A stretch of DNA of 55,679 nt, from assembly GCA_039925885.1 (NCBI GenBank), contig JBDSYB010000172.1, positions 1 through 55,679 of the forward strand, read 5' to 3'. Of this stretch, positions 28,239 through 49,639 are shown piece by piece. Origin of the DNA: Verrucomicrobiota bacterium (lineage in GTDB: Bacteria; Verrucomicrobiota; Verrucomicrobiia; Limisphaerales; CANJXF01). Each line of letters starts with the position of its first letter. Within the stretch, counting starts at the first letter, position 1. The translations under genes and the position numbers were made by a program. The notes under the pieces were generated by a model, which saw nothing but the letters and a program-made list of their open reading frames with translations, did not search any database and had not been told where the DNA came from.

Positions 28239-28266
28239 TTGACAACGGGGGTTCGCCCGGTACTAT
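28239..28266 (+). promoter_or_regulatory. Candidate sigma70-type promoter for the pilB-pilT-pilB-pilC operon
   Basis: TTGACA (28239-28244), a 16-nt spacer and TACTAT (28261-28266) lie 44 nt upstream of the GTG at 28310. This is a sequence match only. Confidence 0.4.
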
Positions 28267-28309
28267 TACGCACAGCTCGGCAAAAAACATTGGATAAAAA
28301 AGGTAAATT

Positions 28310-30016
28310 GTGGCCGCTAAAGACGATTATTTAATAGATTTATTGGTGGACATGGGGTTGGTCACGAACGCGCAACTGGAGGCCGTGCGCCCGGACGCGG
28401 AGTCCACGGGCGAAGGCGTGCTGGATACGTTGGTCGCCCAAAAAATTCTGCGGCCCATTGATATCGCGCAGGCCAAGGCGGCTCATTTTGGTTATGAATT
28501 GATTTCTTTCGCGGACCTGCGGTTGAGCGACGAAGTCATTGCCGCCGTGCCCAGGCATATTGCCAAGCGTTATCGGGCGGTGCCGGTTTCAAAACATGGA
28601 ACGAGTTTAACCATCGCATTGAGTGACCCTTCGGACCTCGACACCATCGACAGCTTGCAACGGGCATTGAACGTGGACATTGAGTTGCGCATCGCGACTG
28701 ACGAAGATCTCGATAACGCGCTCAATAAATATTACGGGGCGGCCGACGATTCCGTGAGTAAAGCCATTCAAGACATCACGGAAAGCGAAGTGGATGCGGC
28801 TGTGATGACCGGCTCGGGGGCCGACGACGGAGCGACGGTGGATGCGGATGCGCCGATCATCAAGCTGGTTAACACGATTATTGTTGAGGCCTTCAAATCG
28901 CGCGCTTCTGATATTCATTTGGAACCTCTGAACAAAACGTTTCGAGTTCGCTATCGAATCGACGGCGTTTTGCACGAAATGAAAAGCCCTCCAAAACGGT
29001 TGCAGGCTTCCATCATCAGCCGTTTGAAAATTCAATCAAACATGTCGATTGCCGAGCGGCGCATCCCGCAGGACGGACGTATCCAAACGCAAGTCGGCGG
29101 GAAGCTGATCGATTTGCGCGTGTCGTGCCTGCCCACCAATCACGGTGAAAGTATCGTGATGCGTATTTTGGACAAAGAAGGTTTGCGGCTTGGTTTGCCT
29201 GAACTTGGATTTTTCACCGACGATCAGCAAACCTTTGAGCGCATGATTGGTTTGCCCGATGGAATTTTGCTCGTGACGGGTCCGACTGGTTCCGGCAAAA
29301 CGACTACGCTTTACTCTTGTCTAAATTTTATTAACCGACCCGATCGGAAAATTATCACGGTCGAGGATCCCGTCGAATATTTGCTCGCCGGAATCAACCA
29401 GGTGCAAGTGAGCGAAACGGTCGGTTTGACTTTTGCGGCGGCTTTGCGCTCGATGCTTCGTCAAGCGCCGAACGTGATTATGCTGGGAGAAATTCGCGAT
29501 ATGGAAACGGCCACGATTGCCATTAATGCTTCGCTGACAGGCCATTTGGTTTTCTCAACGTTGCACACCAACGACGCGCCGGGCGCGGTCACGCGTTTGA
29601 TTGACATCGGCGTGAAACCGTTTTTGGTTGCCTCTTCCACGCGTTGTCTGATGGCGCAACGTCTGGTGCGAAAAGTTTGCAAACGTTGCGCGGAACCTTA
29701 CGTGCCGACCGACGCCGAACTGCGCGCGTTGAATCTCGATCCGGGCAGTGTGCAGGGCGCGACGTTTAAACACGGCAAAGGTTGCAGCGACTGCAATAAA
29801 AACGGTTATCGCGGGCGTTTTGGAGTGTTTGAAGTATTTGTGATCGACGACGAAGCACGAAAGTTGATTTATGATCGCGTTCCAAGTTCAGTGTTGAGAA
29901 TCCGAGCGCGCGAAATGGGTATGAGAACTTTGCGGGAAGATGGAGCGCGCAAATGTCTAGCGGGCTTGACTACACCAGAAGAAGTCATCCGCGCGACCGT
30001 TGGAGATACTGAGTAA
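28310..30016 (+). CDS. pilB: Type IV pilus / type II secretion assembly ATPase (GspE/PilB family), copy 1
   Basis: 568 aa. It has a GspE-N-like N-terminus, Walker [14 protein letters not shown], and a tetracysteine motif CKRCAEPY...CSDCNKNGYRGR. Confidence 0.9.
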   Translation: MAAKDDYLIDLLVDMGLVTNAQLEAVRPDAESTGEGVLDTLVAQKILRPIDIAQAKAAHFGYELISFADLRLSDEVIAAVPRHIAKRYRAVPVSKHGTSLTIALSDPSDLDTIDSLQRALNVDIELRIATDEDLDNALNKYYGAADDSVSKAIQDITESEVDAAVMTGSGADDGATVDADAPIIKLVNTIIVEAFKSRASDIHLEPLNKTFRVRYRIDGVLHEMKSPPKRLQASIISRLKIQSNMSIAERRIPQDGRIQTQVGGKLIDLRVSCLPTNHGESIVMRILDKEGLRLGLPELGFFTDDQQTFERMIGLPDGILLVTGPTGSGKTTTLYSCLNFINRPDRKIITVEDPVEYLLAGINQVQVSETVGLTFAAALRSMLRQAPNVIMLGEIRDMETATIAINASLTGHLVFSTLHTNDAPGAVTRLIDIGVKPFLVASSTRCLMAQRLVRKVCKRCAEPYVPTDAELRALNLDPGSVQGATFKHGKGCSDCNKNGYRGRFGVFEVFVIDDEARKLIYDRVPSSVLRIRAREMGMRTLREDGARKCLAGLTTPEEVIRATVGDTE

Positions 30017-30044
30017 GAAAAACTAAAACGAAACCGATAAAATT

Positions 30045-31166
30045 ATGTCCTATTCCATGTCTGACTTGTTGCAGTTGGTAGTTTCCGAAGGCGCGGCTGA
30101 TTTGCATTTGCGCGTCGGCGTTCCACCCGTTATTCGCCTTCACGGTATTTTGCATCGCGTGGAAGGTCCGCAGTTGAAACCAGAAGACACAGAAGAATTG
30201 ATGCGCTCCATCACGTCGGAAGACCACATCCAACACGTCCGCGAAGATGGCGGCGCTGATTTTGGATTCGCGTTTGGCGATCAGGCGCGTTTTCGCGTCA
30301 GCGTTTTCAAGGAAAAAGGAAATTTCGGAATGGTTTTGCGGCAAATTCCAAACAAGCTGCTGACTCTCGAACAAATTGGTTTGCCACCAACGATCATCAA
30401 CACCCTGATTAACAAACCGCGTGGCCTTGTTCTGGTGACAGGGCCGACTGGTTCAGGAAAAACTACGACGCTCGCTTCGATGATCAACATGATCAACGAA
30501 GAACGCGACGATGCGCATATTATTACCATCGAAGATCCGATCGAATATTATCACAAACACAAAAAAGCGGTGGTGACGCAACGCGAAGTTCATATTGATG
30601 TTCCAAATTTTGCAGAAGCGTTACGTCGCGCTTTGCGGCAGGACCCTGACGTCATTCTGGTCGGCGAATTGCGCGATCTGGAAACGATGGAGGCGGCCAT
30701 CACGGCTGCCGAAACGGGCCATTTAGTTTTCGGCACATTGCATACGACAGGAGCGGCCAAAACCATTGATCGTATTGTGAATGCCTTCCCGATGAACCAG
30801 CAGGAAACGATTCGCATCCAGCTTTCCACCGTTTTGCAGGCCGTTATTTCCCAATTGTTGCTGCCAAGGTCTGATAAACCCGGACGCGTAGCCGCGTATG
30901 AAATCATGATCAACACCCCGGCTATCGCAGCCCTGATTCGCGATAATAAAACATTTCGTATCAACTCTGACATTCAGACGGGCGCAAAATATGGGATGGT
31001 CACCCTCGACAGCTTTCTCATGAGTAAATATGAACAGGGTTGGATTTCGCGAGAGGAAGTCATCAATAAAGCGCAGGATCCGGCCACCGTGCTGGTGAAA
31101 CTCCAGGAATTTGAAGCAGCGCAAATGTCGCAAGCCGCCAAAGGCTCTAACGAGCAACCATCTTAA
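30045..31166 (+). CDS. pilT: Twitching-motility (retraction) ATPase
   Basis: 373 aa. Walker A is [13 protein letters not shown]. The PilT-specific AIxxLIRxxK block is [14 protein letters not shown]. Confidence 0.9.
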
Positions 31167-31172
31167 TTTTTT

Positions 31173-32876: not shown

Positions 32877-32887
32877 CCAAATTTCCT

Positions 32888-34192: not shown

Positions 34193-34210
34193 CACCAAAT
34201 CCTTTTCTAC

Positions 34211-34242
34211 AACGCCGCTCAGAATCTGGGCGGCGTTTTTTT
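34211..34242 (+). terminator. Rho-independent terminator after pilC
   Basis: A GC-rich stem, aacgccgc(t)cag / ctg(g)gcggcgtt, encloses a 3-nt loop and is followed by T7 (34236-34242). Confidence 0.75.
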
Positions 34243-34290
34243 ATCCTAAACGGGGATTCAAGAAATTTTTTAAAAAGTCAAAACAATGGG

Positions 34291-34334
34291 TTGACAAACT
34301 TTTTCAAAGGCGTAAATACAATGTAATCACATTG
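34291..34334 (+). promoter_or_regulatory. Candidate promoter and operator for brnT-brnA, and possibly for the downstream pseudopilin genes
   Basis: TTGACA (34291-34296), a 16-nt spacer and TAAATA (34313-34318) are followed by the inverted repeat caatgt-aatc-acattg (34319-34334). Confidence 0.4.
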
Positions 34335-34357
34335 CATGGCTAAACGCTTTACAAAGT

Positions 34358-34645
34358 ATGGATTTTGACTGGAACAACCCGCCGTTCAACTTGGATCACT
34401 CTCTCAAGCTGCCAGAGATAGAAGAATCCTTTGAAGATCCATTCGCGGTTCGACTCCTGCCCGACTCGCCCCGATTTGCCATGCAGGCACGGTTTTTTAA
34501 TTTGGGCGTCTCGGCCAACGGCACCGGAATTTTCACAGTCTTTCGAACGAACGGCAAACAAGCGCGGGTTATTTACGCCCGTGCTTTTCAAGCGGAGGAA
34601 CAATTTTTTTATCAACGCAAAGTGAACCAGGCATTGGCGCAATAA
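34358..34645 (+). CDS. brnT: BrnT-family (DUF497) type II toxin
   Basis: 95 aa. FDWN at the N-terminus, IEESFEDPFAV, and ARFFNLGVSANGTGIFTVFRTNGKQARVIYARAFQAEEQFFY follow the BrnT pattern (feWD..fEEa..vF.D...eR...iG......l.vvyt.r....riISaR.a...E...Y). Confidence 0.7.
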   Translation: MDFDWNNPPFNLDHSLKLPEIEESFEDPFAVRLLPDSPRFAMQARFFNLGVSANGTGIFTVFRTNGKQARVIYARAFQAEEQFFYQRKVNQALAQ

Positions 34646-34646
34646 T

Positions 34647-34952: not shown

Positions 34953-34954
34953 TT

Positions 34955-35602
34955 ATGGAAACGAAAATCAACACGGGAAGATCGGGTGGAAAAGCTGCCT
35001 TCACATTAATTGAATTATTAGTGGTGATCGCCGTTATTGGAATTTTGGCGGCGATGATCTCCCACCTGTCTGGTCCCGCCGCGATTAAAAGAAAAATCGC
35101 CCGGGTCACGGTAGAATTAGCCCAGCTTGAAACGGCCATTGATTCCTACAAAGAGGCCAAAGGGTTTTATCCGCCGAGCAATGCGGACACGAACAATTCC
35201 GTGACCAACCAACTTTTCTATGAATTGTCCGGAACTGGTTACGACGTGGCGAACAATAAATTTTTCACAATAAAAGGCGACGAAAGCATCACGACAAACT
35301 CGCTGAGAACTTATTTTGGGGTGGATGGATTGGCTAATTCTTCCACCGACAAATCAGAAGTAAAAAACTTTTTTACAGGAATGAAACCGAGTCAGTATGG
35401 CGAGCTTGTCTCATCTCCGGAAGTTGAGTTAATGCTCGTTCCTGTCGAAGGGCCAACTGACATTGTCGCCGCCAATGGAAAAAAAATAAATCCATGGCGC
35501 TACAATTCCAGCGCGCCAGTTCATAACCCCGAGACTTATGACCTCTGGGCGGAAATTGTCATTGGCGGAAAAACAAACGTTATCGGAAATTGGAAAGAAT
35601 AG
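34955..35602 (+). CDS. Prepilin-type N-terminal cleavage/methylation protein, GspG-like pseudopilin 1
   Basis: 215 aa. The N-terminus is METKINTGRSGGKAA|FTLIELLVVIAVIGILAAM. It has no cysteines. It starts 2 nt after the brnA stop. Confidence 0.85.
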   Translation: METKINTGRSGGKAAFTLIELLVVIAVIGILAAMISHLSGPAAIKRKIARVTVELAQLETAIDSYKEAKGFYPPSNADTNNSVTNQLFYELSGTGYDVANNKFFTIKGDESITTNSLRTYFGVDGLANSSTDKSEVKNFFTGMKPSQYGELVSSPEVELMLVPVEGPTDIVAANGKKINPWRYNSSAPVHNPETYDLWAEIVIGGKTNVIGNWKE

Positions 35603-35609: not shown

Positions 35610-36545
35610 ATGAGTGCACGCGCGAACAACAACGAAAAGCAATTGCCAGTTTGCTGGTCTGATAATTCGTGGGAGCCGCCTATCTATGCTGCCTCGCTTT
35701 TTCGGGTTAAACCTTTGCAGGTCTCGGCGATTGCGGTTCCGTTTCTGCCAGCTTTTCAAAGGCCGGTTCTGGCGGGTCGTCGGCTTGGTTCGCGCCGCGC
35801 CTTTACCTTAATTGAAATGTTGGTTGTGATCGCCATTATCGGAATCCTGGCGGGATTGCTTTTGCCAGCCTTGGCCAAGGTGAAGGAACGAGCTCGCATC
35901 GCTCAGGCTAAAACAGACATGGTCAATCTGCTTACGTCGATCACCCAGTATCACGCCACTTATGGACGTTATCCTGGAAGCACCAATGCGACGGAATCTC
36001 TAAACACGGTTTGCCCTGACTTCACCTTTGGCACTTTTAACACAGGCTCCAACTCTATACCTGACATTGGAAACACGGGAAATAATTCTCTTTATCAAGC
36101 GAACAACTCCGAAGTCATGGCAATTTTATTGAACCTGGAAACTTACCCAAACACAGGCAATGCCACGGCTAACAAAGATTTTGCACGCAATCCTCAGAAA
36201 ACGGTTTTCTACACCGCCAAGCGTGTCAACGGAACAAGTCCTGGCGGGGTAGGTGATGATCTGGTTTTTCGTGATCCGTGGGGAAGGCCATATATCATCA
36301 CCATTGACTTCAATTACGATAACAAATGTCGCGACGGGTTTTATTGTAAGGCTACTGTCGCTCAACAAAGTGGAAATACGGGCTATAATGCTTTAGTCAG
36401 GTCGCCTTTGGATACTGGCGACCAGTTTGAAGCGAACGTTCCAGCAATGATCTGGTCACTCGGTCCGGACGGAAAGGCTGACGAAGCTATTAAGGCCAAC
36501 GTTGGGGAGAATAAAGACAATATCCTGAGTTGGTTCTCAAAATGA
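35610..36545 (+). CDS. Prepilin-type protein, GspG-like pseudopilin 2 with an unusually long leader
   Basis: The class III signal is RRA|FTLIEMLVVIAIIGILAGLLLPALAKVKERARIAQAKTDM. DPWGRPYII and WSLGPDGKADE are GspG-like motifs. The start is uncertain. The ATG at 35610 implies a 64-aa leader, and the track ORF begins even earlier, at 35538. Confidence 0.8.
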   Translation: MSARANNNEKQLPVCWSDNSWEPPIYAASLFRVKPLQVSAIAVPFLPAFQRPVLAGRRLGSRRAFTLIEMLVVIAIIGILAGLLLPALAKVKERARIAQAKTDMVNLLTSITQYHATYGRYPGSTNATESLNTVCPDFTFGTFNTGSNSIPDIGNTGNNSLYQANNSEVMAILLNLETYPNTGNATANKDFARNPQKTVFYTAKRVNGTSPGGVGDDLVFRDPWGRPYIITIDFNYDNKCRDGFYCKATVAQQSGNTGYNALVRSPLDTGDQFEANVPAMIWSLGPDGKADEAIKANVGENKDNILSWFSK

Positions 36546-37363
36546 AAACCGTATCTCTAATTTATTCAAACCGCATGGGGATAAAGCCTCGCTCTAGCGG
36601 CGCGTTTACTTTGATCGAGTTGTTGCTGGTCATCACCATCATCGGCATTTTAGCGGCTCTTGGTCTCCCGCATTTAAAAGGTTGGGGCGAGGGGAATACG
36701 ATGACTTCTGCCACGCGCCAGTTGATGGATGATTTGGCACTCGCGCGTCAACGGGCCATCAGCGGGCGTTCTACAGTCTATGTCGTCTTCATTTCTCCGC
36801 AGGCTGTGGACCAGAAGTTTTACGATAACTTGAGCGCTGCCGATAAGAAACAGGCGCTGAATCTTTTTAGTGGGCAATATACTACCTACGCTTTATTTAC
36901 GAGGAAGCCGGTAGGGGAACAACCGGGGCGCGAAAACCCGCGTTACTTGACAGCTTGGAAATCGTTGCCGGAAAAAACTTTCATCGCCACTAATAAATTT
37001 GTCGAACTGCAGGAAAACGTTCGTTTCAACTACGCTGAAACCGACCGGCCTTTCGCGACGAACGCCTTTCCGTTTCCGATGGCAGGCAGTTCGAACCAGC
37101 TTCACTTACCATTTGTCGCTTTTAATTCGCAAGGCCAGCTTGTCTCCGAGAATAAAAACCTTGGGAAACCCGTTTATCAAAACGCGATTATTCCCATTAC
37201 CAAAGGCAGTGTGTTTTACGCGCGGGATCGCGATGGTAATCTGGTTCTTGGTCCCGCCGATGCCGTCGAGACCCCGAAGGGAAATTCTCAAACAAATTTT
37301 AACAATATTCGGGTGGATTGGTTGACGGGACGCGCCAAGCTCGAACGGAGGGAATTCCAATGA
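36542..37363 (+). CDS. Prepilin-type protein, GspH/FimT-like minor pseudopilin
   Basis: There is an ATGA overlap with the upstream stop. The signal is SSGA|FTLIELLLVITIIGILAAL. The stretch TSATRQLMDDLALARQRAISG is GspH-like. Confidence 0.75.
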   Translation: MKTVSLIYSNRMGIKPRSSGAFTLIELLLVITIIGILAALGLPHLKGWGEGNTMTSATRQLMDDLALARQRAISGRSTVYVVFISPQAVDQKFYDNLSAADKKQALNLFSGQYTTYALFTRKPVGEQPGRENPRYLTAWKSLPEKTFIATNKFVELQENVRFNYAETDRPFATNAFPFPMAGSSNQLHLPFVAFNSQGQLVSENKNLGKPVYQNAIIPITKGSVFYARDRDGNLVLGPADAVETPKGNSQTNFNNIRVDWLTGRAKLERREFQ

Positions 37364-38262
37364 AGCTAACATCTTGTAGCAGCCGGGGTGCGAATTCCTT
37401 TTCTTCGAGAGGATATCTTGTTACGCGTTCTCTAGCCAAAGTTGCAGCGTTCACTATGATTGAAATCGCCATCTCCCTGGCGGTAATCGCCTTTGCGCTC
37501 GTGGCTATAATCGGCGTGTTGCCTACCGGGATGACCGTGCAGAAGGACAACCGTGAGGAAACGATCATCAACCAGGATGGCCCTTTTTTTCTGGAAGCGA
37601 TTCGAAATGGCGCAAAAGGTCTGGATTATTTAACGAATCACGTGGATTCAATTACTCACCGCAGACGAGGCACTACCAATGGAGCTATTATCGATGAGAC
37701 AATTAAATATACCAACGCTCCGGGACTATTCGCTGTTCAGCCAGACGGTTCACTTTTAGACGGTTCAATGACCAATGGCTTGAAAATCATTGGCCTTTTA
37801 TCAAACGCTCGATATGACGGTGAACCAACGAACCCAACTAATCGAGTGACGAATTCGATTTCTGCTCGTGTTCGAGCATTGACTGGTTCAGCGACGGAGC
37901 AAGGGCAGGCTAATCCTGATTTCGCATTTAGTTATCGTCTGGAATCTGAAATTACACCTTTTATAACCGGTCAGGTTCCAGTTAGTTCTACGAATTATAA
38001 TTTTGATAATGAAACTCCCCCACTGGATCTTGCGCAGAGTGCAAGCTTGAAATCAATTCGTACGATTGAATGGAAAAAAGTCAAAAATCGCGAAACGAAC
38101 ACCTTTGAAGTCCGCCTGATTTTTAAGTGGCCGCTTTTTCAAAACACCAACGGGCCAAATAGACAGAGCGTCCGCACGCTCGTCACCGGCTCACGGACAA
38201 ATGTTGAAGGGTTAGATTTTTTCCAACCGCAATCTTTTGTCGCCGCTACAAACGTTCCATGA
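37360..38262 (+). CDS. Prepilin-type protein, GspI-position minor pseudopilin
   Basis: There is an ATGA overlap with the upstream stop. The signal is KVAA|FTMIEIAISLAVIAFALVAIIGVLP. The assignment to 'I' rests on gene order only. Confidence 0.7.
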   Translation: MKLTSCSSRGANSFSSRGYLVTRSLAKVAAFTMIEIAISLAVIAFALVAIIGVLPTGMTVQKDNREETIINQDGPFFLEAIRNGAKGLDYLTNHVDSITHRRRGTTNGAIIDETIKYTNAPGLFAVQPDGSLLDGSMTNGLKIIGLLSNARYDGEPTNPTNRVTNSISARVRALTGSATEQGQANPDFAFSYRLESEITPFITGQVPVSSTNYNFDNETPPLDLAQSASLKSIRTIEWKKVKNRETNTFEVRLIFKWPLFQNTNGPNRQSVRTLVTGSRTNVEGLDFFQPQSFVAATNVP

Positions 38263-39116
38263 AAATTAAATTTCAAAAAAAGTTTCGCGCGCAAAGCGGT
38301 TTGACGCTTGTGGAAATGATGGTCGCTACGACGCTTTTGGTGGTGATTATGCTGGGTTTGACGGCGATGTTTAACCAGGTGCAACGCGCCTTTCGCGGCG
38401 GATTGAAACAGGTAGATGTTTTTGAGGGAGGCCGGGCGATCATGGATCTGGTCGCCCGCGATGTCGAACAGCTAACTGCTTCCAAAGATACGAATAACTG
38501 GAGTCTCTACGCTGGGATGCAGGCCGATACTTATTTGACCAGCCTTAATCCAACCGGCACCGCGCCATTTCGCACGAACGTCCTGGATGAGTTGTTTTTA
38601 TTGAACTATGCCAGTGATTGGTCGGCTATTGGCTATCGCGTGCTTAACCCGCAGGACCTGAACAATTTTAATAACTTAAAATTCGGAACGCTTTATCGGT
38701 TCTCCACTAATAACTTTGTTGGGTTCCGTTTCCCTACCAATTACTACTTTAATAATCTTTTTAACAGCGGGAATGCGGGACTCCTGCTTACTAATGGTTA
38801 TCTAAGTCGTGTGGCCGACGGCGTAGTTCATTTTAAAGTTACGTTTTATGATGCGGCGGGTTTTGTCACCACCAACGGGACGAAAGGAGTTTCGTTCCTC
38901 AACCCGCAGCCGTCTGTGGATCTTACCAACGAATTTCAAATCGCCTACAGCGGCGATGCGCTGCCTTCCCTGGTGGAAATTGAACTGGGCGTTCTTGAAC
39001 CACAAACTTTGGAGCAGGCCCGGAGCATGGCCGACCCCACTTCGTATTTGCAAAAGCAGGGTGGGAAAATTCACATTTTCAAACAACAAATTCCCATACG
39101 AAACGCACCGAGATGA
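38259..39116 (+). CDS. Prepilin-type protein, GspJ/PilW-position minor pseudopilin
   Basis: There is an ATGA overlap with the upstream stop. The signal is AQSG|LTLVEMMVATTLLVVIMLGLTAMF. Confidence 0.7.
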   Translation: MKIKFQKKFRAQSGLTLVEMMVATTLLVVIMLGLTAMFNQVQRAFRGGLKQVDVFEGGRAIMDLVARDVEQLTASKDTNNWSLYAGMQADTYLTSLNPTGTAPFRTNVLDELFLLNYASDWSAIGYRVLNPQDLNNFNNLKFGTLYRFSTNNFVGFRFPTNYYFNNLFNSGNAGLLLTNGYLSRVADGVVHFKVTFYDAAGFVTTNGTKGVSFLNPQPSVDLTNEFQIAYSGDALPSLVEIELGVLEPQTLEQARSMADPTSYLQKQGGKIHIFKQQIPIRNAPR

Positions 39117-42100: not shown

Positions 42101-42937
42101 TTTCCGAGTATTGGCTGGCTTGGCCGTGTGCATCGTGGCACCCCTTGGCAAACTGTGTATTTGAAGGGGTCGATCAACACAAATTGGTTTAAATGGGCGG
42201 GGCACAATGAGAGCAATCCCACGAACGATTGGAAATTGATGGATGTATTCACCGCATCGCCAAATGATAACGCATCGCGGGGCTTGCTTTCGGTGAATCA
42301 AACAAACGTTGGGGCTTGGTCCGCCGTGTTGAGTGGAGTTGTTGGGTTGCGCAACTCTTTAAATGACACCGATGTACAGAAGACTGAGCCTGGCGGAGCT
42401 CAATTAGAAGCTGCGGTCATTCAACCTAATTCGCCCGAACTTTTCAAAATTTTGAACGATATCAATGAAACCCGACGGACACAATTTGGAGGTGTTTTTC
42501 AAAATCTGGGGCAGATTTTGGCGGTGCCGAGTTTATCGGCGAGTTACACCAATCTGGTGATCGGAACCGTCACGAACAATGCCATATCTCCTTCACCTTT
42601 TTTGAATATTGGCAATAGCACTGACAATCCCCAAGCCAATGAGGCACAACGGTATTACGGCATTACGGATGAAGCTGTGGAGCGAATCCCCCGGCAAATC
42701 ATGTCGCTTCTGAAATTGGGGGAAGCGCGCTATGTGGTTTATTGCTACGGACAATCTTTGAAACCCGCCAATAATTCATTGGTTTTGAGTGCGCCAGCCG
42801 GGAGCGGCTTGTTTAATCTTTGCACCAATTATCAAATAACCGGGGAAGTATTGACTCGCTCGCTTTTGAAAGTCGAAGGCACGACAAACAATCCGAGAAC
42901 GGTGATCGAAAACTACAGCATTTTGCCAGCTGATTGA
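39113..42937 (+). CDS. Giant GspK/PilX-like protein (1274 aa)
   Basis: There is an ATGA overlap with the J-like gene. The N-terminus QRGVALVITLIMLSVITFLTVAFLAV lacks Glu5, as GspK/PilX do. Two GspK-style motifs are present: GKININ (40385-40402) and GLLSVNQTNVGAWSAVLSGV (from 42281). Confidence 0.7.
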   Translation: MKHQSQRGVALVITLIMLSVITFLTVAFLAVTRRDRASVTQSLNQTDSHLMADTALARFQAELVSGMMARGTLGDYELMLTRNYIRVGGYTNQPLDQYDTNNVNYDFQDVGGPLSNDQRIRNIANLYFDPRPPVFARNADGTTEFRFFLDYNRNGRFETNGFQPVVIDELGNTNGTFKNFLGEPEWIGVLQNPELPHGPNNRFVGRYLYLALPIGKTLDWNYIHNYAKGDIGLQPDFSSGDGFLRNQGFSSHEINLAGFLVDLNTNMYVRNAATPYQYFPDTSLVVSGNTGDVFNDAVSFLKYRYNGNFNNLSSVNTLFGGVGQTAFQTDFIDGYSTKPILVPPYSNQTDPDYQPPNDLTTRPWSGADNKARFINPQELFDSAKSSPNFVGQLQRVSTNNNSYDRYTFQRLLEQIGMGSEPEVKGKININYVNDPTLNTVNTNFVDWTAVQFFTNVAARLFKDNLVALPVSPTQTNFYLFNTNNPANLVRAGFSYANIQIYPTNEYTAPVHRLLQLAANVYDATTTNKYPTLFRPQVYTDAGQTIIKSFVAETNSQFLSSNIIASIQEPTNVINPDGLVWGVPMIIGTKKGFPNFNKFVMQTSIQISRNLQIRKRDRTTIPPVFTRTNQQLFLGVSNSIALEAWNSYVSAYNKSLRVIVTNTTSMSLTNQSGVTIWPANGQPTNSGVSGFTNFLTWPGVLAGSNAYYLPIGTNSMTFLADSQFTGGAVPFTSLKTYSTNNIGFPVPTWTVVITNRLLYVLIDTSEPGGRVVDFVNLANLNNNLDIADALSKKELNSRYADLGAPDSFLGKLWDTNRIDGSGTVTVPTKGVEYQISVSMEDPKLGGDLWDSLNPSKPTGPQRESEVDNFLKFMGDDRVYDTKNQTIPPGLSIQTPFNPAIKFDQTAVWAINDPLVHYMAEDLKNTTNSLQARAHPTDPPPTMYLKNLSPRYRPWGGNRVPFSTGQQIGQITDNTAYDFTVKDPRVRWSDDWDFPTNKFPSIGWLGRVHRGTPWQTVYLKGSINTNWFKWAGHNESNPTNDWKLMDVFTASPNDNASRGLLSVNQTNVGAWSAVLSGVVGLRNSLNDTDVQKTEPGGAQLEAAVIQPNSPELFKILNDINETRRTQFGGVFQNLGQILAVPSLSASYTNLVIGTVTNNAISPSPFLNIGNSTDNPQANEAQRYYGITDEAVERIPRQIMSLLKLGEARYVVYCYGQSLKPANNSLVLSAPAGSGLFNLCTNYQITGEVLTRSLLKVEGTTNNPRTVIENYSILPAD

Positions 42938-43252
42938 TGAGAGCGAACCCGACAAAAAATTTAAGGAACTGCAAAGCCGGCCGGCTAGGGGCGCATCTTA
43001 AATTTGATACGGAGCGCCGGTTTGCAACCGGCTTTGCGGACAACTTTTTCAGGCGGTTGGTTGGTTTCGCCTCCCGTGCTGGTTTATTCAGCGTTAAAGC
43101 CGACCAGAGGTCGGCGCTCTGTTCGTTGGTAGTGGTGTCAAGATGCGCAGACTGGCAAGAATTTACCAAGGTTTTTGTTGGTTGGCCGGCCTTTTGTGGT
43201 ATGTTGAACGACACAAGAATTATTTCCCAAACTTGGTCCAAATAAATTGTCT

Positions 43253-46200
43253 ATGAGACCTAAAAATTGGTTTTTTCTGAGCATTGCGCTGTTCATCGCC
43301 GCCGCGTTCTTCTGGCACCTTGGCGAAAAGAAGCGGCTGGCCAGCCCTCACGCCGCACCGACGGTGCCTGCTCAAACGAGCCAGTCATCCCGCGCTCCCC
43401 ACAAAATTTTTGCGAAATCCAGTTCATCCAAAAAACGCATTGAACTTGCTTCTGACGCGTCAACGAAGCCGGACTCCACCAATGCCAAATCGCTTTATCC
43501 CAATCGGCTGAGTAACACGACGAAAACGATTGACCAACTTTCCCACGATAACAAAGCGATTTTGTTGCGGAACGCGCTGATTGATACCGGTGCAGGACGC
43601 GTGAGTATTCCAAATCACTTGCGGGCCAAAGGCGATCCGGGCAGTTACATTGTGCAATCGAAGGGTCCCCTTACCGATATATTCCGCGCTCAACTCGCTG
43701 AGGCCAAGGCCCAAATTATTTCCTACGTTCCTAATAATGCGTATCTGGTGCGTATGAGTCGCGACAATGTTGAGGCGCTTCGCGGGATCAAAAGTGTTCA
43801 AGCTATATTGCCTTTTGAACCGTACTACAAACTCGATACCGAGCTGTTGGATTTAGCGGTCAAAAATGAAGCGTTGTCGCTCGATCAACCTGTCCGCGTA
43901 ACGTGGTTTCCCGGGCAGAATGAAGCGGGCGCGACAGCATTGGCCGGGAAGGGGAGCGTGCTCAGTGTAGATTTAAAAAGTTCTCCCTTTGGTCCTGAAT
44001 CAATCGTTGCGACTGAAGATTTAGTAGCTTTGGCAAACATTCCGGAAGTGCAAGGGATTGAGCCATTTTATGAACGTGGCTTGCTCAATGATTTAACACG
44101 GGTTCGTTTGGGCGTATCGACTAACTCGCTAACATCAACCCCGAATTACCAAAATCTGACTGGATCGAATGTTCTTGTGAATGTGAACGACACAAGTATT
44201 GATAATGGCCATCCCGATTTAACTCCAAGAATTTTTGTAGGGCCAGGGGTCACGAACACTGACGAAGTGGGACATGGGACGCATGTGGCGGGCATTATTG
44301 CCAGCAGCGGGGTAAACGGACCGACTGGTGCCAATGTGCCGGGATCAGCGCCGAACGCAAATTTCCGCGGTAAAGCGCCAGCGGCCAACATTTTTTCGCT
44401 CGATATTTTTGCGGGTTTGGCGGATTCAGAATTGCAGGAGACAGCAGCGCGAACCAATTTGTTTGGATTTAATCGTCAGTCGCCTTTGATCTCAAATAAC
44501 AGTTGGGGCTATCCCGGTTCGAAAAATTACAATTCAGCATCGGCCAGTTACGATATGGCGGTTCGCGATGCCATTCCGGGCGTGCAAGGTTCTCAGCCAA
44601 TAATTTATGTTTTTGCCGCGGGTAATAGTGGCGGGGGAAATAACAACGGGCAGGGTGGATCCGCTGGCTCGGTTATCTCGCCATCCACTGCCAAGAATGT
44701 AATTACCGTAGGCGCGTTGGAAAGCCCTCGCTTCATTACTAACGATGTCATTCGCAAAAATCGGTTTTGCAACCTTTCAACCAATAAAGAATTTCTCGGC
44801 TTCACGGACAGTTCAAACGAAGTGGCATTCTTTTCGAGTAGAGGAAATGTTGGTATTGGCCAAGAAGGAACTTACGGGCGACTTAAACCTGATGTGGTGG
44901 AGCCAGGGACGTTTATCCTATCTACGCGGTCCCGCCAGTTCGACGAAGGCGCTTATTATAGTACGACTAACTATGACGTGCGGACAATTCCCAATCTAAT
45001 CTTGGATCCTGGCGCGACGAATCGCTTTTCTATTTTTGTGTCGGATGACCCCTGCGATGAGGGTCGTGCTTTGCGGTTGAGGATTGATACGCTGCCTAAC
45101 TCTACTTCGCCTGACCCCTTTCCACCTTTGCAGATATTCGTTAACACGAATGCCGCCGTCTCTGCATCGTCTAACCCCGCTAACTTTGTCGGCACGAATT
45201 CCGTGACGCTTGTCGAAGGGGATCCACAATTTTTTCGCGGGGTGCGGGTTTACTGCGAGATCGTCAACACGAACAACATAGAGGTAAGTTTCAACCGTCG
45301 AACAGAAATCATGCTGACAAATGATTATGGTAATTATTTCGACACCTTGCGAAGCCTAAATGCCACAGTTGCTCCAAACTATTTTTTTGAATCTGGAACC
45401 AGTATGGCTGGGCCCGCTACTTCGGGAATGCTTGCGCTCGTGCAAGAATTTTTTGAGCAAACTTTGCCTGCTGGTATACGTCGAACCAATAGTCCCGCAA
45501 TGATGAAGGCCCTGCTTATCAACAGTGCTCGTTCTCCCGACGATCTACTCTATAAATTGGATGCGAACAGCACCTTGAATATTGCCGGGTGGGGCCTGCC
45601 GAACTTAACGCGCATTTTGCCGACGGTTCTCGCCTCTGAGCCCGATACTAACAAGTGGCCGATTCAGATGTTCGACCAAAGCACAAATAGTGCTCTGGCC
45701 ACGGGAGAGGCGCATTCCCGAACAATTACAGTCGCAGACACTAATTCCCCTTTACGGGTTACTCTTGTCTGGACTGATCCTCCCGGCAATCCGCAAGTCG
45801 GCATTAAGTTAGTCAACGATCTTGACCTTGTGATAAAAACGACTGTGACCAACGGCTTCGGCACTAACGTCACGACTACCACAAATGTGTATCTAGGAAA
45901 CCATTTCTCTGGAGGTGGACAGTTCACGGATCCTGTTGAGGTCGGGACGAATTCAGGGAGTTTTTTGGATTCATCGCGTGATGTGGTGAACAATGTGGAA
46001 AATGTTTATATTAATGGCCCGCTAAGTGGCACTTACGAAGTATCCGTTGTCGCCCGACGTGTGAACGTCAACGCCGTCACCGCGCACACCAATGGAGTTG
46101 TCCAGGATTACGCTCTGGTTATTTCAAGTGGCAATCTGGCAGAGACTGCGCCCTTCGCAGTGGCGCCTATCGCTCCACCACCATCGCCCAACACCAATGG

Positions 46201-49200
46201 GTTTGTTCAAGTGATCGGCAATGGAACTTCGCTTTTGCATCAGCGGGTTGGAGCAAATTCCCCATTGATCGGAACTAATGTAGGCGGAGTTCCGGCTGGA
46301 TCATTAAGTCAGTGGAATTTTTATGTGCTGAACAATCCCAGCAATCAACAAAATGTGGCGTTCCTCACCTTTCTTCCCCCGAATATTTCGGGCACGACTA
46401 ATGTTTCTCCAAACAGCCGTCGCAATATCGAGGCAGACATTGACTTGTATGTTTCGACAGATCCGACTTTGACCAATTTGAATCCGGCAGCCATTGCGGG
46501 AGCGATGACCTCGCGCAAACGGGGTGGCCAGGAATTGATTGTTTTAACGAACGCAACGTCGCCAGTTTATTACGTTGGCGTTAAATCGGAAGATCAACAG
46601 GGAGGAGAATTTGGATTTTTTGGAGTTACCAGCGATGTTGCTTTCAGTCAGCAAAATGCGAATGGCGATGTCACGCTCAATAGTTTGATTAATATTTTTG
46701 ACGGATCTAGCGACATTCCGGATGGTTCCAACTCAAAACCGGGCGGTGCCTATTTCATGGCAATTGCGACAGAGCCAATCAATGTCGCCCGGGTAGTTGT
46801 GACCAACCGCTTCACCCATGAGCGTTTTGGCGATTTGATTGGAACCATTACGCATAATGATCTATTTGCGGTTTTGAATAACCATAGCTTTCCCATCATC
46901 CTTCCGCTATATCCCGAGGGACAGGAATCAGGGACGTTCGAAGGAATTTACGATGATAGTGGATTGATGGACATTCCCAATAGTCGTCCCGTTGATGGTC
47001 CCGGTAGCCTGAACGATTTTATCGGGCAGGATGGCATTGGCTCATGGATGCTGGCGATGGAAGACAACGCCCTAAATGCCACTGGCCGGGTAGAATACCT
47101 TTCCTTGTTCCTGGAGCGCGCGTTGGAGACGAATCAGTTGTTTGGTGGAGGAAGTGGTTTCGCTGTTTCAGGAACAATACCTCCGCAATCGTCAAGAGGA
47201 ATCAGCTTCGTTGTCCCGGCTGACGCGACCAACATGATCATTTCCATCGCCCCGAAGGAAGGTGCGCTCGACACGGTAGTGCGGCGCGGCATCCTGATTC
47301 CAACCCGCAATCCTTATGTGGATAAAGGCACCAATATTTCGCCGCCCGGAGGAAAGCTCACCTGGGGACTGACGGAAGCGACTCCGCCGGGACCTTTGAA
47401 ACCAGGAAGGCATGTGTTGCGCTTATACAATGACGGTGGGGCTCCAGTTACGCTCAATGGTTCGGTAGAGTTTGAGTTAAATCTGACTGCCGCATCGTTT
47501 CAAACCTATGTTTCTGGAGGTTCAGCGTCTATCTTAGACGATGCAGTTACCAACTCGGTCATCAACGTTAAGCGGAGCGGACGTTTGGTTGATGTAGAAG
47601 TCGGCGTGCGCATAGATCATCCACGGATTTCTGATCTGGTGCTGCATCTTGTAAGTCCCGAAGGACCGCGGGTCTTGCTCGCGGAAAATCGTGGCGGGCT
47701 AACAACCAATGGCTATGGCTTCAGCAACCTCACGACTAACGTCGTTGATGGCCTGCAAAACGGGGACAATAACCCCGCCACAAATACTATCCCGACCACC
47801 TCGAATTCCGGGCTTGTCAGCGTTGATTACGATTTCTTTGATGTGGCGGATCAACTTCAGATTTTTTACGATGGCTTTCTTCTTTTCGACAGCGGCATGG
47901 TTGTGGGGGCGGGAACTGTCTCGGTGCCTTTTGGCCCTGGCATTGCTTCAAATGTAGTCATCGTTATCAATGGAGAGGGGAACACGAATGCCACCGCGTG
48001 GGAGTATACGGCTACTATCCTTTCCGGGCAGCTTGTTTACGCAACGTTCTCGGAGAATACCAACCTTGCCCTTGTGCCGATCAAATTTGCCTTGCCGCCC
48101 TTCGGGACTAATCTTCCTGGCTCGAACGTGGTTGTTTTCATGACGAGTGATTTTGAAACGGAAATCCCGGGGACCTTCGCAACTGGCTCGACAGTGGACG
48201 GTTGGAGTGTGGTAACTAATTCGGTGGCGGTCGAAAATTTACCTGGAGTTGCTTATAGTGGAAGCAATTATTTGAATCTGGGTAACGGAGCAGTTGCGCG
48301 CACTTTGCCATCTACAGACCCGAGCAAGATTTATAACTTAAAATTTTCCTACAAACGCGCACCCGGCAGTCCAATCGGCGGGGCGAAAATTGGACTTTCC
48401 GGGGTTTATACAAATGAATTTATTGGTTCGGCGGGATGGATTCCTTTTTCTCAATCTTTCGGAGGAGTTTCAGGCGGATCTGTTTTACAACTCGACGGTA
48501 CATTGCCTAACATGTTGTTTGACACCTTCTCACTGTCAGAAGGCGGCGACCCCAATTACTTTTTGCCAGAAGAATCTCTCAAGACCTTTATCGGTGAACA
48601 ATCGCTGGGCGATTGGAAACTTGAAATATGGGATAGCCGGGCAGGTCAACCGCTGAGCAGCGCCAACCTTCTCAGCTGGAAGTTGGATCTGACCTTTACC
48701 TCTTCTAATGCCACTGCGGTGGTCGTCGATACAGGCGTCGGAGTAACGAACACCGTGAATGGTAATGAGATTAAGTATTTCATCATCGATGTTCCGTTGG
48801 ATGCAACCCACGCCACTAATATTCTCCAAAGTTTCGGGGGGCCGTTGAACCTTTTGTTTAACCAGAATCAATTGCCGGTTGGAAGTGCGGCGCGCGGCGA
48901 CTATACTTTCCTCTCTGTCAGCACAGGAGGAAGCTACGACTTGAACACTTTGACTGGGCCACCTTACCTTCTTCCGGGACGGCGGTATTATCTGGGCGTC
49001 CAAAATGCGAACCGGTCGCAAACTAATCAGTTCAGCCTTAGGGTGGATTTTGATAACACAAACAATCTGGTGGAAGTCACACCGTTGTTTAATGCGATTC
49101 CAGTTTCCACCAACTTGCCGACAGATCGGTCGATTCATTACTATCAGTATGACCTTTCCAACACGGTAGGCTCTCTCACGTTTACTTTGACCGGACTAAG

Positions 49201-49639
49201 TGGTGATGTGGATTTAGTTGTTCGCCGTGGAACTCTACCTTCCCCATCCCAATTTGATTACAATAGCACTTTTGCAGGAACTTTGGACGAGACTATTGTG
49301 GTGCCGAACCCATCGCCAGGCCGTTATTACGTCGGCGTTTACGGCTTTGCACCAACGAATGGAATCGATTACACGGTTACGGCGACTGAAGCAGGGGGCG
49401 TAGCCGTGGTGCCGGCTCCAGTGTTCCTTCCAAATCCAACGGTTACTCCAACGGGTTTTCAAGTTACTGCGACTACCGTGGTGGGTCGGATGTATGAATT
49501 TCAAGTTTCAACCGATTTAATAACTTGGACTATGATATCTACCACGACTGCTACTTCTATATTAACTACCTTCACTGATAACACTCCGCCCTCCACGCAG
49601 GTGGCTCGCTTTTACCGCTTGCTTTTGCTGCCGCCTTAG
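43253..49639 (+). CDS. Giant membrane-anchored subtilisin/kexin-like serine protease (S8) with P-domain-like modules
   Basis: The track ORF starts at a TTG at 43247, and the ATG at 43253 gives MRPKNWFFLSIALFIAAAFFW. The catalytic contexts are NDTSIDNGHPDL (Asp codon 44189-44191), GHGTHVAG (His 44273-44275), NNSWG, and GTSMAGP (Ser 45401-45403). The P-domain-like blocks are HERFGDLIGTITH and HPRISDLVLHLVSPEGPRVLL...GDWKLEIWD. A PPC-like block, GRYYVGVYG, is also present. Confidence 0.85.
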   Translation: MRPKNWFFLSIALFIAAAFFWHLGEKKRLASPHAAPTVPAQTSQSSRAPHKIFAKSSSSKKRIELASDASTKPDSTNAKSLYPNRLSNTTKTIDQLSHDNKAILLRNALIDTGAGRVSIPNHLRAKGDPGSYIVQSKGPLTDIFRAQLAEAKAQIISYVPNNAYLVRMSRDNVEALRGIKSVQAILPFEPYYKLDTELLDLAVKNEALSLDQPVRVTWFPGQNEAGATALAGKGSVLSVDLKSSPFGPESIVATEDLVALANIPEVQGIEPFYERGLLNDLTRVRLGVSTNSLTSTPNYQNLTGSNVLVNVNDTSIDNGHPDLTPRIFVGPGVTNTDEVGHGTHVAGIIASSGVNGPTGANVPGSAPNANFRGKAPAANIFSLDIFAGLADSELQETAARTNLFGFNRQSPLISNNSWGYPGSKNYNSASASYDMAVRDAIPGVQGSQPIIYVFAAGNSGGGNNNGQGGSAGSVISPSTAKNVITVGALESPRFITNDVIRKNRFCNLSTNKEFLGFTDSSNEVAFFSSRGNVGIGQEGTYGRLKPDVVEPGTFILSTRSRQFDEGAYYSTTNYDVRTIPNLILDPGATNRFSIFVSDDPCDEGRALRLRIDTLPNSTSPDPFPPLQIFVNTNAAVSASSNPANFVGTNSVTLVEGDPQFFRGVRVYCEIVNTNNIEVSFNRRTEIMLTNDYGNYFDTLRSLNATVAPNYFFESGTSMAGPATSGMLALVQEFFEQTLPAGIRRTNSPAMMKALLINSARSPDDLLYKLDANSTLNIAGWGLPNLTRILPTVLASEPDTNKWPIQMFDQSTNSALATGEAHSRTITVADTNSPLRVTLVWTDPPGNPQVGIKLVNDLDLVIKTTVTNGFGTNVTTTTNVYLGNHFSGGGQFTDPVEVGTNSGSFLDSSRDVVNNVENVYINGPLSGTYEVSVVARRVNVNAVTAHTNGVVQDYALVISSGNLAETAPFAVAPIAPPPSPNTNGFVQVIGNGTSLLHQRVGANSPLIGTNVGGVPAGSLSQWNFYVLNNPSNQQNVAFLTFLPPNISGTTNVSPNSRRNIEADIDLYVSTDPTLTNLNPAAIAGAMTSRKRGGQELIVLTNATSPVYYVGVKSEDQQGGEFGFFGVTSDVAFSQQNANGDVTLNSLINIFDGSSDIPDGSNSKPGGAYFMAIATEPINVARVVVTNRFTHERFGDLIGTITHNDLFAVLNNHSFPIILPLYPEGQESGTFEGIYDDSGLMDIPNSRPVDGPGSLNDFIGQDGIGSWMLAMEDNALNATGRVEYLSLFLERALETNQLFGGGSGFAVSGTIPPQSSRGISFVVPADATNMIISIAPKEGALDTVVRRGILIPTRNPYVDKGTNISPPGGKLTWGLTEATPPGPLKPGRHVLRLYNDGGAPVTLNGSVEFELNLTAASFQTYVSGGSASILDDAVTNSVINVKRSGRLVDVEVGVRIDHPRISDLVLHLVSPEGPRVLLAENRGGLTTNGYGFSNLTTNVVDGLQNGDNNPATNTIPTTSNSGLVSVDYDFFDVADQLQIFYDGFLLFDSGMVVGAGTVSVPFGPGIASNVVIVINGEGNTNATAWEYTATILSGQLVYATFSENTNLALVPIKFALPPFGTNLPGSNVVVFMTSDFETEIPGTFATGSTVDGWSVVTNSVAVENLPGVAYSGSNYLNLGNGAVARTLPSTDPSKIYNLKFSYKRAPGSPIGGAKIGLSGVYTNEFIGSAGWIPFSQSFGGVSGGSVLQLDGTLPNMLFDTFSLSEGGDPNYFLPEESLKTFIGEQSLGDWKLEIWDSRAGQPLSSANLLSWKLDLTFTSSNATAVVVDTGVGVTNTVNGNEIKYFIIDVPLDATHATNILQSFGGPLNLLFNQNQLPVGSAARGDYTFLSVSTGGSYDLNTLTGPPYLLPGRRYYLGVQNANRSQTNQFSLRVDFDNTNNLVEVTPLFNAIPVSTNLPTDRSIHYYQYDLSNTVGSLTFTLTGLSGDVDLVVRRGTLPSPSQFDYNSTFAGTLDETIVVPNPSPGRYYVGVYGFAPTNGIDYTVTATEAGGVAVVPAPVFLPNPTVTPTGFQVTATTVVGRMYEFQVSTDLITWTMISTTTATSILTTFTDNTPPSTQVARFYRLLLLPP

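Follow-up and report, generated by a model that had tools for sequence, protein, structure and literature searches.

A probable type IVa-like filament locus of Verrucomicrobiota with a giant K-type pilin and an adjoining giant subtilase

What kind of machine is encoded where two PilB-like ATPases, a PilT, a row of prepilins, a 1274-residue protein that begins like a minor pilin and a 2130-residue subtilase follow one another on the same strand? The question is raised by a locus on a contig of a Verrucomicrobiota bacterium (JBDSYB010000172.1, assembly GCA_039925885.1), which we analysed over 55.7 kb (hereafter, the window: the whole stretch of DNA, not the locus alone). An earlier note, made from the sequence by itself, had read it as a type IV filament locus in which the logics of the type II secretion system (T2SS) and the type IV pilus are mixed. 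Taking the window as the reference, we derived open reading frames (ORFs) by six-frame translation and assigned families with Pfam and NCBIfam profiles; wherever experimental behaviour is at issue, the locus is known here from its sequence and from predicted models. It is widespread in the Verrucomicrobiota (Limisphaerales, Pedosphaera and related groups) and appears to comprise two transcription units. We favour, with modest confidence, the reading that it encodes a type IVa-like pilus that is probably retractile, bears a giant modular pilin at its tip and has a protease as its dedicated partner. The kind of machine is itself known; what is new here is a tip-type pilin of an apparently new fold, a giant subtilase as its genomic partner and a fixed regulator resembling a toxin–antitoxin pair.

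The case begins with the conservation of the arrangement. Synteny was assessed in the best 80 loci related to the giant pilin, each represented by 24 kb, by comparing the window proteins with the six-frame ORFs of these relatives; the denominators differ from gene to gene (61–72) with the reach of the contigs. As far as the contig reaches, the order brnT-brnA-pil1-pil2-pil3-pil4-pil5-giant-S8 is kept in 80 of 80 loci. The pilins are found in every locus with enough flank (62–72 of 62–72), and the S8 protease gene lies immediately downstream of the giant gene in 69 of 72, so that its synteny with the pseudopilin genes, on which the earlier note had staked its interpretation, holds in relatives. 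The three loci lacking an S8 match (L051, L061 and L076) are high-GC regions with messy ORFs. In 39 of 61 loci, the pilin operon is immediately preceded by a pilB-pilT-pilB-pilC block, and nothing is conserved among the 80 loci in the flanks outside the motor and pilin blocks.

The family is large. A word-indexed search found at least 1427 relatives of the giant pilin, all annotated as 'hypothetical' and none with a Pfam domain. An exhaustive search of representatives, from which the best 150 full-length members were listed and the totals taken for family size, gave 2680 clusters at 50% identity (1396 at E ≤ 1e-30). A survey with one genome per species found relatives in no fewer than 568 species-level genomes, of which nearly all are from Verrucomicrobiota; represented are Limisphaerales, Pedosphaera and Limisphaera sp. 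VF-2, which is in culture. The carriers L051, L068, L069, L074, L075 and L079 bear the labels of metagenome-assembled genomes from Bifidobacteriaceae, Acidoferrum, Methylomirabilota, Aquilonibacter or Chitinophaga pinensis; a full Verrucomicrobia-type locus on such oddly labelled contigs probably reflects mis-binned or mislabelled assemblies. In the literature searched (on the locus, on Limisphaerales pili and on links between BrnTA and pili), no description of the locus was found.

That the locus belongs to the type IV filament superfamily, as first proposed, is borne out by profile matches to the motor, platform, pilin, PilT and A24 families: it has a PilB/GspE ATPase (in two copies), a PilC/GspF platform protein, class III subunits and, elsewhere in the window, an A24 prepilin peptidase. 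The PilT/PilU-type ATPase expected of a type IVa pilus (T4aP) is present as well, with a score well clear of its family cutoff (coordinates and principal matches of all features are collected in Table 1). The motor operon is headed by the top-scoring site of a promoter scan (10 of 12 matches) and closed by a terminator whose hairpin itself spans 34211–34237, with the T run after it; these two elements, the gene order and all four ATGA overlaps described below were found where the earlier note had put them. ATPase 1 scores 617 bits as PilB (TIGR02538) and 614 bits as GspE (TIGR02533), both slightly under the cutoffs, a GspE equivalog score of 622.6 falls short of its cutoff of 630.25, and the platform protein reaches 400.8 bits as GspF (cutoff 424) and 395 bits as PilC, likewise under the equivalog cutoff. 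The ATPases and the platform protein, that is, score equally as PilB/GspE and PilC/GspF, all narrowly below what an equivalog assignment requires. The two extension ATPases share 45% identity, and ATPase 2 appears from this to be an old paralog of ATPase 1; both paralogs are conserved across loci at 72–95% identity.

PilT is a component of T4aP. The supposed mixture of T2SS and pilus logic is unneeded, because the T4aP minor-pilin operon already consists of H-I-J-K subunits and a large exported non-pilin protein, in systems with PilT, and none of GspC, GspL, GspM or GspD is present here. In the T4aP operon fimU-pilV-pilW-pilX-pilY1, the first four genes correspond to H-I-J-K, and the large non-pilin protein follows (PMC13533445).

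The near-equal scores nevertheless bear on an alternative, namely, a dedicated type II-like secretion device: a short periplasmic pseudopilus would only push the subtilase through a secretin, the subtilase would be autocleaved from its anchor and propeptide and released to the medium, and the giant K-type protein would be the cargo-contacting tip. The scores of ATPase 2 and PilC do lean marginally towards GspE and GspF, and the pilins have matches to GspG (pilins 1 and 2) and GspH (pilin 3); against this stand the bona fide PilT inside the motor operon, T2SS equivalog scores that are all under their cutoffs, and the finding of no GspC, GspL, GspM or GspD in the window or in the 80 loci. The would-be cargo gene is adjacent in 69 of 72 loci, but T2SS substrates are not normally tightly linked to gspK, whereas the S8 gene here often begins a few nt past the giant's stop codon. 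The protease has a conserved catalytic tetrad, and its PPC and β-sandwich modules are typical of secreted hydrolases; moreover, protease secretion that depends on a pilus machine has a precedent, according to work cited in PMC4471445. A 140-kDa tip subunit, by contrast, is without precedent in T2SSs, and taken together we regard such a device as unlikely.

The pilin block itself is compact. Class III motifs start at 34997, 35799, 36602, 37447 and 38298, and these five are the only ones in the whole window; 4-nt ATGA overlaps are present at 36542, 37360, 38259 and 39113. Pilin 1 aligns with E. coli GspG over 67 columns (hhalign probability 98.5%), and its homologs carry Gly or Ala at −1, Phe at +1 and Glu at +5; across the homologs of all five pilins, Phe1 and Glu5 are retained almost without exception. 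Pilin 2 also matches GspG (98.3%). Since its class III motif lies at residue 86 of the ORF, the true start would be later than the ORF start at 35538, possibly the ATG at 35610. Pilin 3 matches GspH over 131 columns (90%). For pilins 4 and 5, comparison with GspI/GspJ and PilV/PilW by hhalign and by a PDB profile search yields a match in the N-terminal helix only. Thus, of the GspG-G-H-I-J-like order first proposed, the two G assignments, for the N-terminal halves of pilins 1 and 2, and the H assignment are upheld by hhalign, whereas 'I' and 'J' are labels by position only.

The giant gene closes this block, joined to it by the last of the ATGA overlaps, a translationally coupled one. The N-terminus of its product, MKHQSQRG/VALVITLIMLSV (the stroke marks the cleavage site), differs little from the MNNEQRG/VALLIVLMLLAL of E. 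coli GspK, the region around the cleavage site reading QRG/VALVIT in the former and QRG/VALLIV in the latter. A profile of 36 homologs of the giant aligns with a 40-sequence GspK profile over 64 columns, which amount to the whole of helix α1 (hhalign probability 92.6%, E 4.7e-7). A missing Glu5 is a hallmark of GspK and PilX, and Glu is absent from position +5 in 74 of 74 giant homologs checked, the residue being I, V, T or L instead.

Past α1 the likeness ends. The giant has no Pfam match at E ≤ 1, including T2SSK, PilX_N and N_methyl; the NCBIfam GspK model NF037980 aligns with residues 6–65 only, at 19.6 bits against a cutoff of 130; and a sequence-profile search of the PDB found no relative. 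Against the same GspK profile, residues 70–1274 and the C-terminal 255 aa give hhalign probabilities of 2–8%, and residues 70–300, immediately after α1, less than 1%; a collinear C-terminal alignment of the giant with GspK was not counted, because its probability was only 2–8%. AlphaFold2 gives a confident model (mean predicted local distance difference test score 86.8, predicted template modelling score 0.81) for a homolog 1177 aa long that shares 41% identity with the giant of the window; it has a 65-residue N-terminal helix (5–69), followed by a mixed domain, a helical domain, a long-strand β-sandwich, a conserved α/β region with GWLGRVHRGTPWQTVYLK, and three long C-terminal strands. Foldseek searches of the PDB with this full-length model, and with a model of residues 885–1274 of the window giant, returned no credible match and none to GspK. 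A GspK-like body was rejected on these grounds, the results of Pfam, NCBIfam, PDB profile and Foldseek searches, and of hhalign with E. coli GspK alone as well as with the 40-sequence profile, all being negative past α1.

The earlier note had described the giant as a K-like subunit enlarged about four-fold, which implies a GspK body with additions. The GspK/PilX-type N-terminus survives scrutiny and the enlargement does not; indeed, a lack of GspK/PilX similarity beyond the hydrophobic N-terminus, which the note had itself named as the outcome that would count against it, is very nearly what was found, the body matching nothing in Pfam or the PDB. The name 'K-like' is, therefore, justified by the α1 helix, the missing Glu5 and the gene position, and not by the body, which on the predicted models appears to be a new fold family. 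The three long C-terminal strands that are predicted may complete the pilin sheet in cis. Two local features of the body are conserved. An EF-hand-like loop of the form D-x-N-x-N-G-x-x-E (residues 150–158, DYNRNGRFE) is kept in most homologs; in PilY1, among other proteins, calcium is bound by loops of this general kind, Dx[DN]xDG (PMC3123361). The invariant motif GWLGRVHRGTPWQTVYLK at residues 1001–1018 is disordered in the isolated C-terminal model and confidently placed in the full-length one.

The protein encoded next, the giant subtilase, is as described at first in its length and N-terminal membrane anchor, the ORF and a conserved N-terminal segment both being confirmed. From the N-terminus, it consists of a signal anchor, the S8 domain, β-sandwich modules, split P-domain pieces, a PPC domain (residues 1964–2033) and a C-terminal domain ending RFYRLLLLPP. 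The catalytic domain (approximately residues 306–760) has the Asp-His-Ser triad and oxyanion Asn of a subtilase, with some 300 residues separating the oxyanion Asn, N417, from the catalytic Ser, S719; among proteins of solved structure, it is nearest to the KP-43/SubHal subtilases (E 1e-18 to 1e-19). The label 'kexin-like' has to be withdrawn, because P_proprotein is matched by two fragments (residues 1449–1499 and 1777–1814) that lie more than 700 residues past this KP-43-like domain, whereas in kexin and the proprotein convertases (S8B) the P-domain directly follows the catalytic domain. The tetrad is kept almost throughout: D315 and H343 in 69 of 69 homologs, and N417 and S719 in 68 of 69. 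The enzyme looks active on this pattern of residues, and with the tetrad so conserved proteolysis would be part of the conserved function.

In length the S8 homologs range from 1479 to 3191 aa, and the two ends of the protein are common to most of the 69: an unusually conserved N-terminal hydrophobic/transmembrane segment, ..WFLLSLLLF.AA..FWRLGD (43247–43330), and a C-terminal β-sandwich (49540–49639) ending RFYR[LVI]xxxP, an ending found in no other window protein. In many loci, the S8 frame opens a few nt from the giant's stop codon. In the window, the spacer measures 310 nt (42938–43246) and contains a 103-aa ORF (42934–43245) that is probably spurious, neither it nor the spacer being conserved in relatives.

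How the subtilase relates to the filament is suggested by its position. It occupies the operon slot of PilY1 and MshQ, directly after the K-type gene (PMC13533445), and has no match to the PilY1/PilC tip-adhesin domain; position alone is shared. It might, nonetheless, be a strict PilY1/MshQ-type, tip-tethered partner, the C-terminal segment of which adds a β-strand to the giant, such that the pilus displays a protease. The shared slot would fit, as would the conserved C-terminal domain with its distinctive RFYR[LVI]xxxP tail. We consider this improbable, however: in the predicted model, the giant already ends in three long β-strands of its own, a pattern typically seen where there is no separate tip adhesin (PMC13533445), and the N-terminal anchor of the subtilase is unlike the signal peptide of PilY1. 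That same anchor, with its unusual conservation and without an obvious signal-peptidase site, together with the tight pilin linkage and the frequent start within a few nt of the giant's stop, could also bring to mind an inner-membrane-anchored periplasmic protease that processes or quality-controls the giant or other subunits and is never exported. Yet approximately 1400 residues of β-sandwich, PPC and P-domain-like modules, variable in length, follow the catalytic domain and look like an extracellular substrate-binding array, and no cleavage motif was identified in the giant; this we hold to be the least probable of the alternatives considered.

At the head of the pilin operon stand two small genes, which had been passed over as an incidental brnT/brnA insert and which turn out to encode the most conserved products of the operon. 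The BrnT-like gene is found in 62 of 62 loci (median identity 70.5%) and brnA in 61 of 62 (75.8%), compared with median identities of 34–45% for the pilins, 37.6% for the giant and 41.5% for the S8 protease. Within BrnA, the ribbon-helix-helix segment VTITLRIDPRML.RIKRLA is nearly invariant. The 95-aa BrnT-like family comprises 4073 clusters at 90% identity, and independent contigs show the same context; by sequence, the protein has no match to solved BrnT. The idea of an incidental mobile insert was rejected on the strength of this conservation and the strict synteny. As only 2 nt separate brnA from pilin 1, the pair appears to head the pilin-giant-S8 transcript.

Upstream of brnT lies a putative promoter/operator with TTGACA at 34291–34296, the tandem repeats CGTAAATACA and TGTAATCACA at 34311–34331, TTGCATGG, and an inverted TTTACA at 34348–34353. 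In the window, as in 60 of 62 related loci, brnT is preceded by a pattern of the type TTGACA-N15–19-TAAATA, within the wider consensus TTGACA-N16–18-(T)GTAAATACAaTGTAAnnACATTGCATGG...TTTACA; several operator positions are 90–100% conserved, and in most loci the −10 element lies 42–50 nt from the start codon. Within the window, 34291–34357 is the best match to the repeat and its sole cluster. Because the −10 element is imperfect, we speak of a promoter only as a candidate; the repeat pattern is as expected of an operator bound by a ribbon-helix-helix protein, to judge from its sequence. We infer that the BrnT/BrnA-like pair is a domesticated, autoregulating switch of the pilin operon; the alternative is an addiction module that stabilizes the locus.

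Table 1. Positions of the features discussed, with their principal matches or characteristics
Feature	Coordinates	Strand	Match or characteristic
Prepilin peptidase, PilD/GspO type, 379 aa	17511-18650	+	A24_N_bact E 1.1e-33, Peptidase_A24 E 4.3e-17
Candidate sigma-70-like promoter of motor operon	28239-28266	+	TTGACA-16-TACTAT, consensus match only
Extension ATPase 1, PilB/GspE family, 568 aa	28310-30016	+	T2SSE E 1.5e-133, N-terminal MshEN 6.4e-21
PilT-type retraction ATPase, 373 aa	30045-31166	+	TIGR01420 pilT_fam 455 bits, cutoff 319
Extension ATPase 2, PilB/GspE family, 567 aa	31173-32876	+	T2SSE E 2.4e-136, MshEN
Platform protein PilC/GspF, 434 aa	32888-34192	+	T2SSF twice, E 3.8e-64
Intrinsic terminator closing motor operon	34211-34244	+	12-bp stem, 8 GC pairs, 3-nt loop, T7 run
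Putative promoter/operator of pilin operon	34291-34357	+	Conserved in relatives; -10 imperfect
BrnT-like (DUF497) protein, 95 aa, first gene of pilin operon	34358-34645	+	BrnT_toxin 25.5 bits
BrnA/CopG-type ribbon-helix-helix protein, 101 aa	34647-34952	+	CopG_antitoxin (PF12441) 41.5 bits, gathering 28
Pilin 1, GspG/PilA-like N-terminus, 215 aa	34955-35602	+	N_methyl
Pilin 2, GspG-like N-terminus	35610-36545 (start uncertain)	+	N_methyl at ORF residues 86-109, weak T2SSG match
Minor pilin 3, GspH/FimU-like	36542-37363	+	N_methyl, weak GspH match
Minor pilin 4, 'I' position	37360-38262	+	Class III motif AAFTMIE
Minor pilin 5, 'J' position	38259-39116	+	N_methyl
Giant tip-type pilin, 1274 aa	39113-42937	+	GspK/PilX-type α1 without Glu5, ~1200-aa body
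Giant subtilase, 2130 aa	43247-49639	+	Peptidase_S8 (124 bits), P_proprotein, PPC

The prepilin peptidase, which was missing from the list given in the earlier note, lies approximately 9.7 kb upstream of the motor operon; judged by its function, it would belong with the locus and supply the processing enzyme that the pilins need. Between the two are a histidine kinase and an OmpR-type response regulator (19642–22763, +), followed by a 751-aa ankyrin/TPR protein (23041–25296). A PIN-domain (VapC-like) ORF at 25836–26264 (+) is a second toxin-type gene of the window and shows no evident tie to the pilus locus. Further afield, the surroundings carry PSCyt/PSD1 and DUF1501 genes, in keeping with a bacterium of the PVC group: a 6S/SsrS RNA (14582–14759, −; Rfam RF00013, 54.3 bits against a gathering threshold of 46.4) is situated between two convergent DUF1501 genes, and an Acido-Lenti-1 small RNA motif (3229–3274, +; RF01687, 40.3 bits against 37) lies directly upstream of the gene for a 999-aa PSCyt1/PSCyt2/PSD1 protein (3401–6400).

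Assembled into a mechanism, the type IVa-like pilus would operate as follows. The first transcription unit, pilB1-pilT-pilB2-pilC, ending at the terminator, would contribute the platform protein together with three ATPases, two for extension and one for retraction. The second, read from the conserved promoter/operator, would comprise the BrnT/BrnA-like pair, two GspG/PilA-like pilins, three minor pilins, the giant and the subtilase, with the ribbon-helix-helix BrnA binding the repeats that overlap the promoter and so conferring autoregulation. Following processing by the prepilin peptidase, the minor pilins and the giant would form a priming complex that stays at the tip of the filament. The body of the giant, some 1200 aa, would be the ligand-binding module of this tip, an extreme cis-type 'modular pilin' in the manner of CpaL and ComZ, its large insertion sitting between the pilin helix and the C-terminal strands. 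In support of such a layout, K-family tip subunits were reported in a 2026 study to acquire their last β-strand either in trans (from PilY1, PilC or MshQ) or in cis; a strand supplied in cis is often preceded by a large insertion, CpaL (about 600 aa) and ComZ being examples (PMC13533445).

The subtilase, exported by Sec via its conserved N-terminal anchor, would be the dedicated partner of the filament. Most likely among its fates, though put forward tentatively, is that the filament delivers it to the cell surface or sets it free; type IV pilus machines are capable of protein secretion, the subtilases of Dichelobacter being a case in point (cited in PMC4471445). That the subtilase is tethered to the tip complex is a doubtful second possibility, a role as a periplasmic processing protease is slightly more doubtful again, and some other fate less probable than either.

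Several points weigh against a type IVa-like pilus with a dedicated protease partner. In 22 of 61 loci, the motor block and the pilin block are not adjacent. The window ORFs tested by Pfam include no secretin, PilMNOP or GspCLM gene, as had already been remarked of the window, and none was found at distances of up to 10 kb from the giant in the 80 loci. Hidden Markov model (HMM), profile–profile and Foldseek searches detected no resemblance between the body of the giant and GspK, PilX or any fold in the PDB, and pilins 4 and 5 resemble known minor pilins in the helix alone. The BrnT_toxin match (PF04365) is below the gathering threshold of 34.5 bits; some close homologs carry a precomputed PF04365 match. 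Finally, the long conserved hydrophobic segment could hold the protease in the inner membrane, and that protease and filament are in contact, physically or functionally, is itself an inference.

A bolder joint reading, which we rate as improbable, would make the retractile pilus a tool for protease delivery, with its operon gated by a co-opted toxin–antitoxin pair. The 140-kDa tip pilin of new fold would bind a target (a prey cell, polymer or protein particle) and carry or position the 230–350-kDa subtilase at the site of contact, whereupon retraction would haul in the products. If true, type IV filaments would gain a new functional class, found in a phylum that is abundant in soil and fresh water, and a toxin–antitoxin module would for the first time be seen to have become fixed as regulator of a surface machine.

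Type IV filaments rank with the most intensively studied machines of bacteria, yet what is known of their tip complexes comes almost entirely from Proteobacteria, Firmicutes and Thermus, and here a phylum-level lineage keeps what would be a different tip solution, in at least 568 species genomes and about 1400–2700 clusters at 50% identity. The locus would extend two ideas, that of the 'modular pilin' and that of the licensing of tip complexes by a β-strand supplied in cis or in trans, and its K-type giant exceeds the 860-residue extreme of a 2021 survey (PMC8179133). It further makes a connection between pili and extracellular proteolysis testable in bacteria of soil and fresh water that are abundant and poorly cultured, and it provides an unusually clear candidate for a toxin–antitoxin pair domesticated as an operon regulator.

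Among known systems, the comparison lies first with the T4aP minor-pilin/PilY1 operons, fimU-pilV-pilW-pilX-pilY1-pilE of P. aeruginosa and mshDOP-mshQ of the mannose-sensitive haemagglutinin (MSHA) pilus of V. cholerae. As in these, a row of class III minor pilins ends in a K-type subunit without Glu5, which is followed by a very large non-pilin protein with an N-terminal export signal (PMC13533445), and PilB, PilT, PilC and a prepilin peptidase are present. The differences are that the K-type subunit is approximately 1270 aa here as against about 200–330 aa, that a subtilase, to all appearance active, takes the downstream place of the von Willebrand factor A (vWA)/β-propeller adhesin, and that the present locus has two PilB paralogs, a BrnT/BrnA-like pair at the head of the operon, and pilMNOPQ unlinked. 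With GspK (T2SSK, PF03934/PF21687; NF037980), the giant shares the leader and the whole of α1 (QRG/VAL.I.L, no Glu5), the last place in the pseudopilin block and a C-terminus made of β-strands; unlike GspK, it is four times longer and has no T2SSK domain by HMM, profile–profile or fold search.

The regulatory pair resembles the type II toxin–antitoxin BrnT/BrnA in its toxin-first order with a 1-nt gap and in its fold families (DUF497/BrnT-like and CopG/ribbon-helix-helix), and, as in autoregulated toxin–antitoxin operons, repeats overlap the promoter. Mobile toxin–antitoxin modules typically have a patchy distribution; by contrast, the present pair is strictly syntenic and vertically conserved over at least 62 divergent loci, surpasses its neighbours in conservation, and is apparently co-transcribed with nine downstream structural genes. 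For the coupling of protease and filament, the nearest parallel is Dichelobacter nodosus, in which a type IV pilus machine is needed to export S8 proteases, as cited in PMC4471445; there, however, the proteases are of ordinary size and their genes lie outside the pilin operon, whereas at the present locus the coupling is proposed from gene order.

In joining a pilin module to a large functional module that is expected at the tip, the giant resembles the modular pilins, such as CpaL/TadG of Tad pili, ComZ of Thermus and PilB/PilC of S. sanguinis. CpaL has a dispensable middle of about 470 aa between its pilin domain and C-terminal strand (PMC13533445); the inserted body of the giant, in contrast, measures about 1000–1200 aa and is without a recognisable domain. 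Modular pilins were found to be common in the 2021 survey, the largest listed being 860 aa (PMC8179133), but that survey required the N_methyl signature IPR012902, and its Pfam equivalent, N_methyl, finds no match in the giant.

Among named systems, the Verru_Chthon cassette A–D (TIGR02600, TIGR02598, TIGR02599 and TIGR02596) comes closest to the locus; it is likewise specific to Verrucomicrobia and combines pilin-like proteins with one protein of approximately 1300 aa. To our knowledge, going by the TIGRFAMs description, the cassette is uncharacterised, and no mention of it was found in the literature searched. Pilins 3, 4 and 5 and the giant weakly match Verru_Chthon D, B, C and A, respectively: D scores 40.0 bits with pilin 3 (E 4.4e-10) against a cutoff of 70, B 19.8 against 51.4, and C 26.2 against 256.5, whereas A gives 5.9 bits for the window giant and at most about 25 in its homologs, against a cutoff of 332. 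The A model is matched by 31 of 36 giant homologs, and only over profile positions 1–56 of 1296, where it describes the same K-type helix as that of the giant. Since these matches are far under the cutoffs and confined to the N-terminal helix, with bodies that are not detectably related, the locus shares the layout of the cassette without being a member of it. On these comparisons, Verrucomicrobia may hold at least two families of K-type pilins of approximately 1300 aa with unrelated bodies.

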